Positions 1-6,443 of a DNA stretch of 6,443 nucleotides are shown here, in pieces; position 1 is the first letter of the stretch; each line of letters starts with the position of its first letter. Under the pieces are notes generated by a model. That model searched no databases. It was not told where the DNA came from and saw only the letters and a program-made list of their open reading frames with translations. Source of the stretch: a virus (lineage: Duplodnaviria; Heunggongvirae; Uroviricota; Caudoviricetes); IMG/VR virus record IMGVR_UViG_2531839666_000013, positions 1 through 6,443 of that record; one strand, 5' to 3'. The translations under genes were made by a program, and so were the position numbers.

Positions 1-697
1 CGGCGGGCACTTCTGCCGGTATTATCCGGGAAGGTACGGTTAATCAGCCTGTCACGGCGAAGACCATCCCCCTTGAACAGAAACACCCTGTTGCCCAGTC
101 CGTCACTCCGGCAACGACGCCAGAAACGATAGGCGTTATCTGTCACCCCGGCTTCCCCTCCCGTATCCACAGCCATGGCCATCAGACGCATGCGCACATC
201 CGGATCAGAAGCCAGCGGCCATGTTTTATGGAACACATCCGTCAGCAACAAATCCCAGTCCTCCGGATATGCTGCCGGATCAACCGGCAGACTTTCACCG
301 TTGGGACTGCAGCGTAGTGAATGCCGGATGTTGTAGCGATCAACAATCCAGCGTTCCCCCTGCTCTCCGTATCCGGTGATCTGCACAACAAAACGGCGAT
401 TTTTACCGCCCTGAACGTCAACCGTTGCCTCAATAAAACGCACACCATCCGGCACAGATCTCCGGGGAAACGGCTCGGCACGCTGTTCAAGCAGTTCACT
501 TTTACGCTGTTCCGTGGCTGAACGGGGCAGATAGGGCCGCCCGATATCGGTGTTCACCACCGCTTTCAGGGTCTCTTCACTGCCGGTTCGCTCATACTCT
601 TCTTCTGCCGCCAGCAGCTTAAAAATCAGTTGTTCCCAGGTCTGAAACGCCGCAGCCGGCCCCTCCATCCAGAAACTTGCTATTCTGGAATTTCGGG
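1..697 (-). CDS. A: Terminase large subunit (lambda gpA family), C-terminal portion; in a different frame from the N-terminal ORF, 3' end beyond window start
   Basis: Minus-strand frame with codons ending at 678, 675 ... 3 translates without stops as ...ASFWMEGPAAAFQTWEQLIFKLLAAEEEYERTGSEETLKAVVNTDIGRPY...VDVQGGKNRRFVVQITGYGEQGERWIVDRYNI...AVDTGGEAGVTDNAYRFWRRC.... From memory this is collinear with the lambda gpA region after the CPHCG motif (SPFTTWVQIV...FVNTTLGETWE...IDSQLDRYEMRVWGWG...). It carries no Met start because it continues the 680..1669 ORF after a frame change near 695-699. Confidence 0.75.
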
Positions 698-1669
698 GGT
701 TCCGGTGATACTGCCATCCACCGCTGCCCGTTCGCCTTCCCGCAGCCAGATCCCCTGGTTATTCAGTTCACGCTTCTGTTCCGGAGCAATCAGCCCGCGA
801 CAATGCGGACACATCAGACGGGCCGCCTGCCCGGCAGCCACAAAATCAGGGTTATTCCGGTAACCGGTCATGTTATCCATCACCGGCTGAAAATATTCCC
901 CGCAGTGCGGACACGGCCAGTACCACCGGCGGCGGTCTCCCCTGTTATACAGTGACAGGATCCCCGTTGTTGGCGGTGCCTCATGTGCGCCACCACAACG
1001 CCATTTGGTGTCAGTGATATCCCGCCCCGGTGAACTCTCAACCAGGGTCATCCCCGAAGACATAAAGGTGGTGGTACGCTTTGATGCCAGGGTGAAGGCA
1101 TCCCCTTCCCCGTCCACGTTTTCAGGGAAACGGTCATAATCCGTCAGCGCCACACGACGGTAATCCGAAGAGGAAAATACGGTGATCGACGGCCAGCCAA
1201 TTTTCAGGAATGAGCCGTCAAGAAACATTTTGTCGTGGACGTTGTTGTCATTACGGGAGGGGCTGAGGCGTTTGCAGACCTCCGGGCTGTGGCGAAACGT
1301 CCTGGAAAGACGCGTTCTGGAATGCTCACGCGCCTTCGTCTCGGTCATCTGCACCACCAGCATGTCCGCCGGATCACAGATGATGCCGTACACAATCCAG
1401 CCATCAATCAGCCCTTCGGTTTTCCCGGTTCGCGCAGGTCCGACAAACACCACCGCGTCATATTCACGGGCTGATAATGTATTAATGGGGTCTATCATAT
1501 AGGGCGTCAGCGATGACTCCCACGGACCGGAAGTATTGGCTCCCCGTGGTACCCGCATATAACGCCTGATGGCTTCCGCTACTGGTAACCGGCCAGGTGG
1601 GCGAAACAGCGAGGCCACTTCGCGCCAGATATCGGATGCGCGGCTATGGCTCTCGTTCACCTGATTCAC
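680..1669 (-). CDS. A: Terminase large subunit (lambda gpA family), N-terminal ATPase portion; ends at a premature TAG caused by an apparent 1-nt deletion
   Basis: 329-aa ORF with a P-loop (VVFVGPARTGKTEGL) and the gpA-like motifs SLFRPPG and WYWPCPHCGEYF...LMCPHCRGLI...GIWLREGE, matching lambda gpA SLFRPEP and FHVACPHCGEEQY...GIWTRDG. GTG start at 1669 with GAGG upstream, overlapping the stop of the upstream small-subunit gene. Only about half the expected gpA length before the stop at 680-682. Confidence 0.88.
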   Translation of the reverse strand: MNQVNESHSRASDIWREVASLFRPPGRLPVAEAIRRYMRVPRGANTSGPWESSLTPYMIDPINTLSAREYDAVVFVGPARTGKTEGLIDGWIVYGIICDPADMLVVQMTETKAREHSRTRLSRTFRHSPEVCKRLSPSRNDNNVHDKMFLDGSFLKIGWPSITVFSSSDYRRVALTDYDRFPENVDGEGDAFTLASKRTTTFMSSGMTLVESSPGRDITDTKWRCGGAHEAPPTTGILSLYNRGDRRRWYWPCPHCGEYFQPVMDNMTGYRNNPDFVAAGQAARLMCPHCRGLIAPEQKRELNNQGIWLREGERAAVDGSITGTPEIPE

Positions 1670-2849: not shown

Positions 2850-3323
2850 CTAGTTAATACACTGAGTGCGGATATATTCCTTCGCCCCTTCCAGCTGCTT
2901 CTGCATTGTCATCAACCGTTCTCTGAGGATGAAATAATCCCGTTCAGCGGTGTCTGCCAGTCGGGGGCCGGTTGCATTATCCACGCCGGAGGTGCCGGTG
3001 GCTTCACGCACTGTACCGGGGCAGGTGGCGTTGATCCGCAGGCGCTTACGACCAGCGGCAACATCAGCACGCAGAGTTTCATTTTCAGCTCTCGCATCGG
3101 CTAATTCCCTCGAGTATTTTGCATCGAGCGCAGCAACATCGCGCTGGCGCACCTGCATATCAGTAATGGTTGCGTTTGCCAGCTCCAGCTCTCTGGCTTT
3201 TTTATCGCGCTGCGCTTTGTAGGTGATGGCGTTATCGCGGTAATGATTCAGCCCCAGACTAAGCACACCACAGACCACCAGCAGAATAACGGTAAACGCG
3301 GAAAGCATTCGGTTTATGCTCAC
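2850..3323 (-). CDS. Rz: Rz i-spanin (inner-membrane spanin subunit)
   Basis: 157-aa product is near-collinear with lambda Rz: N-terminal TM segment then [58 protein letters not shown]...[29 protein letters not shown] start at 3323 overlaps the TGA of the upstream small gene. Confidence 0.92.
2912..3097 (-). CDS. Rz1: Rz1 o-spanin lipoprotein, embedded in the +1 frame of Rz
   Basis: 61-aa product [61 protein letters not shown] closely matches lambda Rz1 (MLKLKMMLCV...[27 protein letters not shown]). Lipobox LVVSAC, proline-rich, wholly inside Rz. Confidence 0.88.
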
Positions 3324-3451
3324 CCCAGCAGCCCCGACGAAGATAACATCATCCAGCCCATGGAAAGAAAAAGAGCAACCAGCATTAGTGAAAATGAAAT
3401 GCCGACGATTACACAGAGGATCTTCGCCAGCATTGTGAGTTTGTCTGACAT
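3320..3451 (-). CDS. Small hydrophobic membrane peptide (43 aa), unknown function
   Basis: ATG at 3451 preceded by a strong SD AGGGAGGA 7 nt upstream; product [43 protein letters not shown] is a single predicted TM helix. Its TGA stop overlaps the Rz GTG start (GTGA). Below the ORF-track size cut-off as an ATG-initiated ORF; the track shows a longer alternative-start version (3320..3541). Confidence 0.45.
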
Positions 3452-3465
3452 GTTTAATCCTCCCT

Positions 3466-3648
3466 TCACGATTTCAACGCAATGACCAGTTTTGCCAGCC
3501 CATACAGCATCGGAGACACAGCGATACCGACCGCCACCCACTTAATAGCAAAAGCCAGTGCTCTGCTGATGTCATCAGTTACTGGCGCTTTCAGTTCAAG
3601 GCCGTTTTTCATAGTCAACCTCAACAGAATTCGTTTATACTTTTCCAT
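3466..3648 (-). CDS. Small membrane protein (60 aa, C-terminal TM helix), unknown function
   Basis: ATG at 3648 ([60 protein letters not shown]) with AGGGAG 5 nt upstream. The track ORF starts further up at a GTG (3681) inside the terminator stem, which is less plausible. Followed 14 nt later by the next small gene. Confidence 0.45.
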
Positions 3649-3681
3649 GTTCTCCCTTGCCTTATCCAAGGTCAGAAACAC

Positions 3682-3720
3682 AAAACCCCGCTTGCTGCCA
3701 ACAAACGGGGTTTTTACTTT
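3682..3720. terminator. Rho-independent terminator-like hairpin between the endolysin and the small membrane-peptide genes (possibly bidirectional)
   Basis: Plus strand aaaaccccg-[15 nt loop]-cggggttttt followed by acttttatt: a 9-bp stem with a CCCCG/CGGGG core flanked by an A-run on one side and a T-run on the other. Confidence 0.4.
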
Positions 3721-3804
3721 TATTCACTTAGGTTTTGCCAGTTCGCAGGATTTCGTGTTATCCACCCGCGTTGGCCAACGTCATTTTTCAGCAAAATATT
3801 CTGC

Positions 3805-4338
3805 TTATCTGTCGATTCCCCAGCACGCCAGCGCACTCTCCTGGTCGCGACGGGATACCTGACCGTAGCAATTATTTGAGCGGATACGGCAGTCTCTGCC
3901 ACCGTCCTTAATCCACCAGCGAATCGCTTCACACGCTCCCCTGCGATCGCCTGCATTAATTCGTTTATAAAACGTCGACGGGAAACACTTACCGGGGCCA
4001 ATGTTATACGGGCAGAATGACGCAATACCCGCTTTCTGGGGTTCAGTCAGTGGCACTTTGATGTTTTTCTCCACCCATGCCAGCGCCTTATCACGCTCAA
4101 TGGCGTTAACCCGGTCGCATTTCCCCTTCGACAGCTTCATGCCAGGAATCACAGGCTTACCATCCACCCGGGTGGCTCCACGGCAGATGGTCCAGATACC
4201 CGCACCATCACGGTATGCCGTGGTGTGGTTACCTTCTTTTTCATCCAGAAACTGGTCGAGGATTTCAGGCGCAGAAGCCCCTGCGGCAATCAGCGCCAGA
4301 ACAGCAGCTGACAGGCCGTATTTGATTTTTGCGTTCAT
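3805..4338 (-). CDS. R: SAR endolysin (phage lysozyme, glycoside hydrolase family 24, R21-like)
   Basis: 177-aa product with an N-terminal Gly/Ala-rich signal-anchor-release segment (YGLSAAVLALIAAGASA) followed by EGNHTTAYRDGAGIWTICRG, which matches the E-x8-D-x5-T catalytic arrangement of phage 21 R ([20 protein letters not shown]). Pairs functionally with the pinholin upstream. Confidence 0.92.
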   Translation of the reverse strand: MNAKIKYGLSAAVLALIAAGASAPEILDQFLDEKEGNHTTAYRDGAGIWTICRGATRVDGKPVIPGMKLSKGKCDRVNAIERDKALAWVEKNIKVPLTEPQKAGIASFCPYNIGPGKCFPSTFYKRINAGDRRGACEAIRWWIKDGGRDCRIRSNNCYGQVSRRDQESALACWGIDR

Positions 4339-4374
4339 GGATATATTAAATATTCAGCCGCTGTCCCTGGCCCA

Positions 4375-4563
4375 CTAAATACGCACTTTAAGATAAGTCA
4401 GCCCCGGCTGGATCCAGTTATCAGGCTCAGTCTTAAAGGGTGGAGTATTGAAATCACGAAGAACGGTCTCCCGCACAACTGCATCCTTGTCAGCACCACT
4501 GGCCAGCGCTTCAATCTCAGCAGCTACCTGAAGATATCCCATGCAACGACCAATACGCTTCAT
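4375..4563 (-). CDS. Hypothetical protein (62 aa), second gene of a two-gene cargo module
   Basis: ATG at 4563-4561 overlaps the TGA of the upstream 265-aa gene (ATGA), with AGGGG 5 nt upstream; product [62 protein letters not shown]. No family recognised. Confidence 0.5.
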   Translation of the reverse strand: MKRIGRCMGYLQVAAEIEALASGADKDAVVRETVLRDFNTPPFKTEPDNWIQPGLTYLKVRI

Positions 4564-5360
4564 CAGCCCCTGTTTTTATTGTTCTTCAGGTAATCAATGG
4601 CAAATTCAATGAGCATCTCACAGTGCTGGTGCGATGGCGGTGTTACTTTTCCATTTTCTGATATGGTGATTTTCCCGTCATCACCGGATACAACAAAGGA
4701 TGGCCGGTTACACTCCCGTTCCTGGTTTTTGTCCGACACAGGCACAGTAAAATCACTTTCATGCCCGTTTTTACGACAGTCCTCGCCACGTACCGCAGCA
4801 AATACCGACAAGGCATACTCCTTTGCTCTCGCTTCATAGTCGCTGAATGTTGTTTTCGGATCGTAGTCTTCCCTGTACATAACCGACAGAACTTCCTCAT
4901 GATCAATATGAACACTGACCACGCTGCCTATTCTTTTGGTCAGCACAAGACGAGAATCTTCCCCGACTTTCACTCCTGGTGTCACACGTGCCGGAAGCTC
5001 CACATTAACCATCGCGCTCTGCACATCATCAGGCGCATTTTTTACCGGTTCGTTGACCTTTTCACGCCCCGGGTAAGTGGCGATTTTTTCCGGCATTGTC
5101 CATGAAGAAATATTCTGAAAGCCATATCGCGCAGTCCCTTCGCGTAATCCGAGAGCCGCATCCATGAAAAACTGCTTCGCCTGTTTTTTCGCCTCAGCTT
5201 CGTAAAACTCCAGCGTGGCACCTTCAGTACGGTCAAGACTAATCGCCACATATGGCGACAACAACGACGGCTGCCCGGCAATTACCAGTGCCACAGTAAC
5301 AGTTATCTTATCCGGGTAATGATTTATCCCTTTTACAACCAGTTCATATTTTTTATTCAT
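4563..5360 (-). CDS. Hypothetical protein (265 aa), cargo gene between pinholin and endolysin
   Basis: ATG at 5360 ([18 protein letters not shown]...) preceded by GGGGAG. Long stop-free frame to TGA at 4563-4565 with protein-like composition. In the ORF track it appears fused in frame to the holin as a 355-aa ORF (4563..5630), but the holin part is clearly a separate gene. One hydrophobic stretch ([22 protein letters not shown]) near the N-terminus; no motif I can assign. Confidence 0.7.
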
Positions 5361-5364
5361 CGCT

Positions 5365-5578
5365 TTACTCTCCCCGGGCGCCTTACGACGGTCTTCTTTA
5401 ATCTTGAAATACAGGTTCGTCAGGTACGTCAGCAGACCAAACAGCAGACTCCCCAGCACGCCTATTGCCGCCCACTGAGACGGGGAAACCCTGTCCAGCA
5501 ACTGCAGGAACCAGTAGCCCGTTCCACCGCTGACGTGGTGTATGACACACCTGTTGTGAATTTTTCCATCTGGTACAT
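5365..5578 (-). pseudogene. S: Class II pinholin (phage 21 S21-like) with dual-start motif; reading frame broken twice by apparent 1-nt deletions
   Basis: Frame B from ATG 5578 gives [17 protein letters not shown] (S21: MKSMDKISTGIAYGTSA); frame A then gives [50 protein letters not shown] (S21: [47 protein letters not shown]). Restoring one base near 5372-5381 recreates ...GE-TAA at 5365-5367, as in S21. It may equally be intact in reality if the deletions are sequencing errors. Confidence 0.8.
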
Positions 5579-5652
5579 ACCCGTCTCCGCAATCCGGAAG
5601 CTCACAACAATATAAAGACCACCGGCACACACCGATGGTCCCTTGCGCATGC

Positions 5653-5898
5653 TTACATCATCATGTCGCTGTCAGGTGTGGGGTCACCGCCATCTGAAGC
5701 ACTCCCCTCACCCGCGATACCTTCCGGCTCCGGAACTGCCGGTGCGCCCAGCAGTTCATCCAGAATGGCATCCACTTCTGCATCAAGACGCGCCTCGAGG
5801 TTCTGGCGGAGTTTCTGTTTCAGTGCGCTCAGGACTTCTTCAGAGCGCAGGACTTCCTTCACTGCCTCTGCAGTGACCAGGGATGTAATTTCTGACAT
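5653..5898 (-). CDS. Small highly acidic protein (81 aa), unknown function
   Basis: [81 protein letters not shown]: about 18 Asp/Glu against 6 Lys/Arg, helical N-terminal half and an acidic low-complexity tail. The track's 139-aa ORF (5653..6072) is the same frame with an implausible N-terminal extension. The RBS is weak. Confidence 0.55.
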
Positions 5899-5938
5899 GG
5901 GATTTTCTCGTCGAAAGGTGTGATTAAGAAAGTTGCAG

Positions 5939-6118
5939 CTAAATGAGCGGCTCTTCGGGTTTGCTTCCGGCTGACTGACTGGCGCTGATTTTCTCTGCGG
6001 CCCTTTTATCAATCTGCCTGCGCCAGAAATCGCGCACTGCCCTGTACCCACCCGAAAGAAGATACAGCACACAGACCGCCGTACAGAAGCACAGCATTAA
6101 CTGGTTCAGAAATGTCAT
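5939..6118 (-). CDS. Small membrane protein (59 aa, N-terminal TM helix), unknown function
   Basis: ATG at 6118 with GGTGAG upstream; MTFLNQLMLCFCTAVCVLYLLSGGYRAVRDFWRRQIDKRAAEKISASQSAGSKPEEPLI; stop TAG at 5939-5941. Just below the ORF-track size cut-off; it overlaps, in another frame, the unlikely extension of the 139-aa ORF. Confidence 0.45.
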   Translation of the reverse strand: MTFLNQLMLCFCTAVCVLYLLSGGYRAVRDFWRRQIDKRAAEKISASQSAGSKPEEPLI

Positions 6119-6204
6119 GGTTTCTCACCGTGATAGTTGACATGATTTACTTATTTTTGTAGAAAAACACCGCAGACTTCGGTGTCATCATGGTCGTTTT
6201 ACCA

Positions 6205-6267
6205 GCCGCCAGCATTCATGTAGTGGACAAAGTTCATCCCTTTCCTTCATTGCTGGCGGCCTTTTTT
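6205..6267 (+). terminator. Hairpin with 10-bp GC-rich stem and T6 tract (plus-strand polarity), directly after the stop of the upstream minus-strand gene
   Basis: Plus gccgccagca (6205..6214) pairs with tgctggcggc (6251..6260), separated by a 36-nt loop, followed by cttttttatc. The T-tract is on the plus strand only; on the minus strand the structure is preceded by an A-run. Confidence 0.3.
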
Positions 6268-6268
6268 A

Positions 6269-6443
6269 TCATGCCGCGGCATCCGCGTTGTTCACTTCCA
6301 CCTTCACACTGTCAATCAGCAACGTATATGTCGCCGCCTTTGATATGTCTGTCAGTTGCAGTTTGTCCGCCGCCCCTGATGCCGGAGATTTCACCAGTGT
6401 GAACGGTGTACCCCGTTCTCATCCAGTACCGGCGTCACCTGAA
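6269..6443 (-). CDS. 3' end of an unidentified upstream gene (partial), frame broken by an apparent 1-nt deletion in a G-run
   Basis: Minus frame c reads ...QVTPVLDENGVHRSHW-stop; the adjacent frame b continues as TPFTLVKSPASGAADKLQLTDISKAATYTLLIDSVKVEVNNADAAA to a stop at 6269-6271. Restoring one G in the GGGG run (plus cccc 6411..6414) joins them into one frame. Identity unknown; its position upstream of the holin would fit a late-gene regulator such as Q, but I cannot confirm that from the sequence. Confidence 0.45.

Follow-up and report, generated by a model that had tools for sequence, protein, structure and literature searches.

The question raised by this locus is whether two short reading frames between the lysis genes of a tailed phage represent two genes or one, and what their product might do. 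The stretch of DNA that was analysed (the window) comprises 6,443 nucleotides from the IMG/VR record IMGVR_UViG_2531839666_000013. According to the ORF listing, all genes of the window lie on the minus strand. Two minus-strand ORFs, one of 265 aa (5360-4563) and one of 62 aa (4563-4375), are indeed present between a phage-21-type pinholin and a SAR-type lysozyme, as a sequence-only reading of this DNA had stated. That reading took them for two translationally coupled accessory genes. Pfam confirms the DUF1378, DUF826 and DUF1327 assignments, and the remaining genes of the window are confirmed by annotated relatives. The layout is as follows.

6118-5939, minus strand: DUF1378 gene, 59 aa (Pfam PF07125, E 3e-36).
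5898-5653, minus strand: DUF826 gene, 81 aa, upstream of the holin (Pfam PF05696, E 3e-41).
5578-5365, minus strand: phage-21-type (class II) pinholin with the dual start MYQMEK (annotated relatives, which have an intact holin of 71 aa there).
5360-4375, minus strand: YdfR-family cargo gene, about 328 codons once repaired (relatives, Pfam, PHROG).
4338-3805, minus strand: intact SAR-type lysozyme of 177 aa, whose N-terminus has a hydrophobic SAR-like segment (annotated relatives).
After the lysozyme, minus strand, in this order: Rz/Rz1, a DUF1441-type small terminase and the large terminase (annotated relatives).

The ATG of the cargo gene (5360) is located 4 nt past the expected stop of the holin, and the gene ends 36 nt before the ATG of the lysozyme, the exact sequence of which is recorded as lysozyme on 85 contigs. 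The ORF listing counted the 265-aa ORF inside a fused ORF of 355 aa (5630-4563), which arises because the pinholin upstream has lost its stop.

Other features of the window were also recorded. Between the DUF826 stop and the pinholin start lies a 13-bp stem-loop (5614-5643, minus strand; RNA fold -23.1 kcal/mol, z -3.0), which is followed by a U-rich stretch and is identical in close relatives; it could be terminator-like or could serve to control translation of the holin. Two small overlapping ORFs of 71 and 73 aa, both containing a hydrophobic stretch, lie between the lysozyme and Rz (3320-3681, minus strand), and a possible 1-nt deletion (3674) is located at the start of the first. In relatives this slot holds other small hypothetical genes or an antirepressor. 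The stretch 2100-2400, between Rz and the small terminase gene, is low in GC (~0.40), and its runs at 2379 and 2190 are shortened compared with relatives.

Comparison with relatives draws attention to two short features at the junction between the 265-aa and 62-aa ORFs.

4577-4573, minus strand: A5 run, the site of a 1-nt deletion; relatives have A6 or AAAAAG (alignment to relatives).
4565-4561, minus strand: TGATG overlap, a by-product of the frameshift; intact genes encode Leu-Met there (ORF comparison).

The stop/start overlap had been read as ATGA; the actual sequence is TGATG, with one shared base at 4563. In FHI_NMBU_10, which is 99.2% identical at the DNA level, the region is an uninterrupted ORF of 328 aa (L004:5345-6331), and the same is true of strain 48 (96.8% identical). 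The closest relatives differ from the window at the junction solely by an extra A. The homologue in phage Stx2_95 (BCI50300.1) is a single ORF of 329 aa. In relatives the junction reads AATAAAAAACAGGGGCTGATGAAG or ...AAAAAGCAGGGG..., which encodes N-K-K-Q-G-L-M-K. The window has one A fewer and reads ...K-N-R-G-stop, so that an in-frame Met is exposed as an apparent start.

The same picture emerges from larger samples. Exact matches to the window junction in IMG/VR number 0, while the intact junction occurs in at least 120 contigs; the ORF crosses the junction in all of these viral contigs, and its sizes include 296, 185, 268 and 325-330 aa. Loci found by a protein pattern, a search that is independent of the junction DNA, have both halves in one frame in 80 of 80 cases. 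Their junction is spelled AAAAAG in 51 of the 66 that were scored, and all are in frame. The length of the single ORF ranges across viral contigs from 185 to 330 aa. Furthermore, the conserved core of the protein, HRDxII...L...(K/R)x(L/I)GR(C/S/A)xxLLQxAAEIE...DxPPxK...W..PG..YL, is unbroken over the junction site in distant Salmonella enterica homologues. In the C-terminal domain predicted by AF2, the place where the window is split is a loop that joins two helices. The claim of two translationally coupled genes is thus not borne out, since the closest relatives and 200 of 200 viral contigs among the matches listed have one ORF across the junction. The region 5360-4375 is one gene, not a pair, whether the deletion is an error or real decay. 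Loss of one A from the A6 run (4577-4573) shifts the frame into a TGA and exposes the in-frame internal ATG; the lost A thereby creates the illusion of a coupled pair of 265 aa and 62 aa.

A genuine coupled two-gene accessory system, acting in toxin-antitoxin, abortive infection or superinfection exclusion, would agree with the TGATG overlap and with an AGGGG located 4 nt before the internal ATG in the window. In addition, 62-aa products are on record, namely WP_001371175.1, which is the exact 62-aa protein, and phrog_26186, a family of 62 aa. The database entries examined, however, are alleles that are frameshifted upstream and keep an open frame through the junction. Three metagenome contigs with the exact 62-aa sequence (L211-L213), which come from different samples, carry the same allele of the 213-aa type; its frameshift lies further upstream and it was called as 123 aa + 62 aa. 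In this allele an open frame of 154 aa crosses the junction; gene calling picked an internal ATG within it. Because the frame stays open and the internal ATG was merely chosen, the 62-aa entries examined do not contradict a single gene. Disrupted alleles of the YdfR family therefore circulate, or recur as assembly errors. An internal translation start as a conserved feature was also considered and rejected, because the Met is not kept in distant homologues. Outside the window the two halves form one ORF and one predicted domain.

Superinfection exclusion, abortive infection and toxin-antitoxin functions had been put forward for this region, and the searches did not favor them. PADLOC gave no match at E up to 0.1 and NCBIfam gave chance-level matches only. 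The gene lacks a promoter-like site of its own, and its K-12 homologue, YdfR, reportedly does not inhibit growth when overproduced (PMC13232886). We therefore consider a genuine two-gene system very improbable.

The A run itself suggests another mechanism, programmed ribosomal frameshifting or phase variation with alternative products, and the site is in fact a homopolymer (A6) in the closest relatives. However, most of the scored junctions carry AAAAAG rather than A6, all of them in frame, and the Salmonella homologues have other residues at this position. The window's A5 junction is without a match in IMG/VR, and like deletions are scattered over unrelated genes and intergenic DNA of the window. 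Such a mechanism is hardly credible here.

These scattered deletions bear on the origin of the frameshift. The window was aligned to its best references, and indels were judged in well-aligned stretches. There, about eleven deletions that shorten homopolymers were found and no insertions.

6417: AAA to AA.
5586 and 5582: GGG to GG and GGGG to GGG, in the Shine-Dalgarno region of the holin.
Near 5525 and 5379: 1 nt each, inside the pinholin, the stop of which is put out of frame.
4577: shortened A run in the cargo gene.
3674: possible deletion, less certain.
2584: GG to G.
2379: T6 to T4.
2190: A8 to A7.
699: C6 to C5 (run 695-699, minus strand), which cuts the large terminase ORF to 329 aa.

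In the large terminase gene (1-1669, minus strand) the frame past 699 is open, with 0 stops over 240 codons to the end of the window. The best 2.7-kb alignment contains 6 homopolymer deletions versus 24 substitutions. We judge six deletions per 24 substitutions to be too high a share of indels for natural divergence. One-directional errors that include very short runs, in otherwise pristine genes, are the signature of homopolymer under-calling by the sequencing platform. An error in sequencing is the likeliest source, because the window shows about eleven deletions of this kind but no insertion; the deletion in the cargo gene is probably a homopolymer error of sequencing or assembly.

The frameshifts could also be real. 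The window would then come from a decaying cryptic prophage, in which the cargo gene, the pinholin and the large terminase are pseudogenes. Four genes are affected, and three independent metagenome contigs carry frameshifted family alleles. Shortened ORFs are seen in about 15 of the 120 viral contigs among the matches listed, and cryptic prophages such as Qin retain the same gene layout. Against decay, the well-aligned stretches reveal only homopolymer shortenings of 1-2 nt, even GG to G and AAA to AA; insertions, nonsense mutations and larger lesions are absent there, and the broken genes are otherwise fully open. We regard real, recent decay as possible but rather unlikely, and favor sequencing error. 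Because of the roughly eleven indels, an ORF-level reading of this window needs comparison with relatives. The case also carries a more general caution, since one homopolymer indel can mimic a convincing coupled two-gene module, including a Shine-Dalgarno-like sequence.

Once the frame is restored, the protein can be divided into three parts.

5360-5133, minus strand: N-terminal DUF1327 domain, aa 1-76, with three beta-strands and then a long helix (Pfam, AF2).
5132-4716, minus strand: variable middle, aa 77-215, allele-specific (alignment, AF2).
4715-4375, minus strand: conserved C-terminal domain, aa ~216-328, a beta-hairpin region and four helices; it spans the frameshift (AF2).

HMM searches, which the sequence-only reading had proposed as a check, returned DUF1327 (PF07041) and PHROG 1085, that is, a family of uncharacterised function. 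Although the sequence-only reading saw no resemblance to any lysis, packaging or regulatory protein, the product does resemble a known family: residues 1-76 match positions 1-76 of the 93 positions in the DUF1327 profile (113.5 bits against a gathering cut-off of 25, E 5.4e-33). This part is 42% identical to K-12 YdfR over 79 aa (E 1e-17), and the block-mean pLDDT of the AF2 model is ~70-93 for residues 1-70. In the intact allele (P0001; L004:5345-6328), residues 1-328 align with positions 1-296 of the 296 positions in PHROG 1085 (E 4e-115). P0001, with 328 aa, is present in NCBI nr at 99% identity under the name "DUF1327 domain-containing protein". The system is also not undescribed, as it belongs to a catalogued family (DUF1327/YdfR, PHROG 1085) that is routine at the slot between the S and R genes. 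What is new here is an allele of a known, functionally uncharacterised prophage gene family.

The middle segment is where similarity to Stx2_95 is lost and where other alleles have unrelated sequence. It has only 13 homologues, all from E. coli and all hypothetical, and its AF2 pLDDT is <50. Among 5426 complete E. coli genomes, only 8 have the full-length allele. With a shallow alignment, AF2 modelled the full 328-aa protein at a mean pLDDT of 50.7, and a Foldseek search of this model against the PDB gave nothing meaningful (best E 0.07). The family as a whole is a mosaic, which combines a DUF1327 or a coiled-coil-like N-terminus with alternative middles and a conserved C-terminal domain; alleles at the S-R slot measure 103-333 aa and have swapped modules. 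In hundreds of Stx phage records a DUF1327 gene follows directly after the pinholin, for example the 114-aa "YdfR family protein" of Stx2a_WGPS2.

Existing annotation of these genes is uneven. In RefSeq/PGAP the annotation covers the first 75 codons only, under the label "partial DUF1327 pseudogene" (L004:5570-6367, L005:2070-2867, L006:1617-2414 and many E. coli genomes). Despite this pseudogene label L004 has the complete 328-aa ORF, and no frameshift appears in the alignment of strain 48. A "COG0188 topoisomerase" label on Stx2-86 gp05 was not supported by any search and was rejected.

The C-terminal domain was modelled separately. With a diverse alignment AF2 predicts one compact domain (mean pLDDT 82, pTM 0.73), and the supposed 62-aa gene corresponds to its last three helices. 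Structure prediction had likewise been suggested as a check; it yielded one domain that spans the split between the two ORFs and has no structural relative. Pfam and structure searches returned no relative of this domain in Pfam, the PDB or BFVD, and HMM searches against PDB sequences gave only chance-level matches. Only 40 of 1.84 billion cluster representatives match the C-terminal profile, all within the family, which indicates that the family is narrow. The named sources of these 40 are E. coli and Salmonella prophages, and several distant members come from Logan assemblies. A contig scan with the Salmonella-type alignment found no locus. Of 5426 complete E. coli genomes, 771 (~14%) carry the DNA of the domain, and in a spread sample of the 771 most genomes have no annotated feature there. 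Because alleles that lack DUF1327 retain the C-terminal domain at the same slot, the constant function of the family may lie in this domain rather than in DUF1327.

Next to the structure, the position of the gene is informative. Among the matches listed, 111 viral contigs have flanks; the start of the gene is at most 50 nt from the pinholin in 95, and its end at most 50 nt from the lysozyme in 84. A gap of ~450 nt follows the gene in 22 of the 120 viral contigs among the matches listed (about a fifth), and this length fits a convergent ORF of 104 aa. Such an ORF lies directly after the cargo gene in Stx2-86 (gp06, L003:3585-3899, minus strand) and is likewise annotated in Stx2_12E129. In Salmonella Dublin a convergent 105-aa ORF (L208:3807-4124, minus strand), 46% identical to gp06 (E 2e-34), follows the homologue. 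The 104-105-aa ORF has no Pfam family and is absent from the window; it may be a functional partner of the cargo gene.

The suggestion that the region is variable cargo of the late/lysis unit stands: the gene is lower in GC than its neighbours, highly mosaic and non-core. Its lower GC content, which had been judged by eye, is confirmed by calculation: the cargo gene has 47.8% GC, the holin 53.7%, the lysozyme 54.3% and the large terminase 57.0%. The comparison with related prophages, also proposed earlier, indicates that the gene is not a conserved core lysis component, given the range of allele sizes and the different location of the Salmonella homologue. In a Salmonella Dublin prophage (L208, GCA_029142665.1, 2127-3801) this homologue follows just after Q and a hicAB toxin-antitoxin pair and precedes the holin. 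Because of this location between Q/hicAB and the holin, the gene is better described as late-operon cargo than as an obligatory part of lysis.

A consensus scan for sigma-70-like promoters found 0 sites in 3700-6443, against 2.5 expected by chance, although a scan of this type gives weak evidence. Since the gene has no promoter-like site of its own and follows the holin at a distance of 4 nt, it should, judged from the DNA, be made only with the late/lysis transcript. A hydropathy scan of the cargo protein found no transmembrane segment, signal/SAR sequence or lipobox. The maximal 19-residue Kyte-Doolittle mean is 1.46, in the beta-strand region of DUF1327, and the pI is 6.0; these values show a protein that is predicted to be soluble and mildly acidic.

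The location also invites the idea that the protein regulates or times lysis by acting on the pinholin or the SAR endolysin. The gene fits closely between S and R in most E. coli loci and shares their transcript, and a genetic screen mentioned in PMC13232886 linked ydfR to envelope integrity. This envelope phenotype of a ydfR deletion could, however, be a polar effect on rrrQ. A regulator of this kind is also at odds with the missing transmembrane segment and signal sequence, with the extreme mosaicism of the alleles and with the Salmonella homologue upstream of the holin, beside Q and hicAB. To our knowledge, phage 21 itself has no gene at the S-R slot, which we also count against this idea. 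A role in lysis timing is therefore improbable. Taken as a whole, the observations are best explained by one long-form YdfR/DUF1327 gene, carried as late-operon cargo by a lambdoid, Stx-phage-like E. coli prophage, and we hold this explanation to be highly probable.

The family is common in the lysis regions of E. coli and Stx phages, where it is placed on the late transcript with the lysis genes, downstream of the stx region, and it has hardly been studied. The C-terminal domain, the family's most conserved part, is without a Pfam model and is often left unannotated by RefSeq. In the literature found on DUF1327/ydfR the only functional lead is a 2026 report (PMC13232886), and the Stx-phage lysis-region literature found does not discuss the gene. 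In this report a two-hybrid screen picked up residues 1-72 of K-12 YdfR three times, the full-length protein interacted with Rne 1-597, and Rne 1-598 co-eluted with Strep-YdfR (PMC13232886). The YdfR eluates contained DNase-resistant nucleic acid, although, according to the authors, the RNA binder might have been a contaminant (PMC13232886). Overproduction of YdfR changed few transcripts and did not inhibit growth (PMC13232886).

Because of the two-hybrid, co-elution and eluate data on YdfR, one can guess by analogy that the cargo protein is a late-expressed accessory protein that binds RNase E or RNA; we offer this tentatively, as a possibility that is more doubtful than likely. The N-terminal DUF1327 domain would then act like K-12 YdfR, bind the catalytic half of RNase E and associate with RNA. 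The cargo protein would modulate RNA turnover late in infection, and the orphan C-terminal domain would supply a second activity or partner. The link to RNase E draws on one paper and on a 42%-identical homologue, and the other ~200 residues, the C-terminal domain included, lie outside it. A broader proposal is that these proteins are late phage effectors, in which DUF1327 docks the catalytic half of RNase E or RNA, the C-terminal domain brings a new activity and the 104-aa ORF serves as a partner in about a fifth of loci. This is a long shot; if it were true, it would amount to a previously unrecognised phage system that manipulates host RNA decay in late development of the Stx-phage type. 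The RNase E interaction report (PMC13232886) provides a testable starting point, and the residual interest of the locus lies there and in the orphan C-terminal domain.

Finally, the window protein can be compared with known systems. The nearest named relative is YdfR from the cryptic Qin prophage of E. coli K-12 (P76160), which is homologous to the N-terminal 76 residues. Its slot in Qin is identical, with the order essQ (class II holin)-ydfR-rrrQ (lysozyme). YdfR, with 103 aa, consists of DUF1327 and a short helix, whereas the window protein of ~328 aa adds a middle of ~140 aa and a C-terminal domain of ~110 aa. The long forms of Stx phages (Stx2-converting phage 86 gp05, YP_794052.1; Stx2_95, BCI50300.1; PHROG 1085) have the same architecture and the same position after the pinholin, and their C-terminal domain is 74-83% identical to that of the window. 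In contrast, their middle is unrelated to that of the window and their genes are intact; Stx2-86 and Stx2_12E129 moreover have the convergent 104-aa ORF after the gene, which the window is without. Short forms of 185 and 213 aa (e.g. WP_033883328.1 from strain JNEC-KY174) share the slot and the C-terminal domain with the window but have a coiled-coil-like N-terminus (MNHEEMNQRFSRLENEIAELNKK...) in place of DUF1327.

On the functional side, the closest parallels are proteins that act on RNase E. RraA and phage-encoded RNase E modulators are further protein modulators of this enzyme. No sequence or fold similarity between such modulators or adaptors and the window protein was found. With RapZ, an adaptor of RNase E, the likeness is in the proposed mode only, in that YdfR 1-72 reportedly binds the catalytic half of RNase E and YdfR co-purifies with RNA, as RapZ does (PMC13232886).
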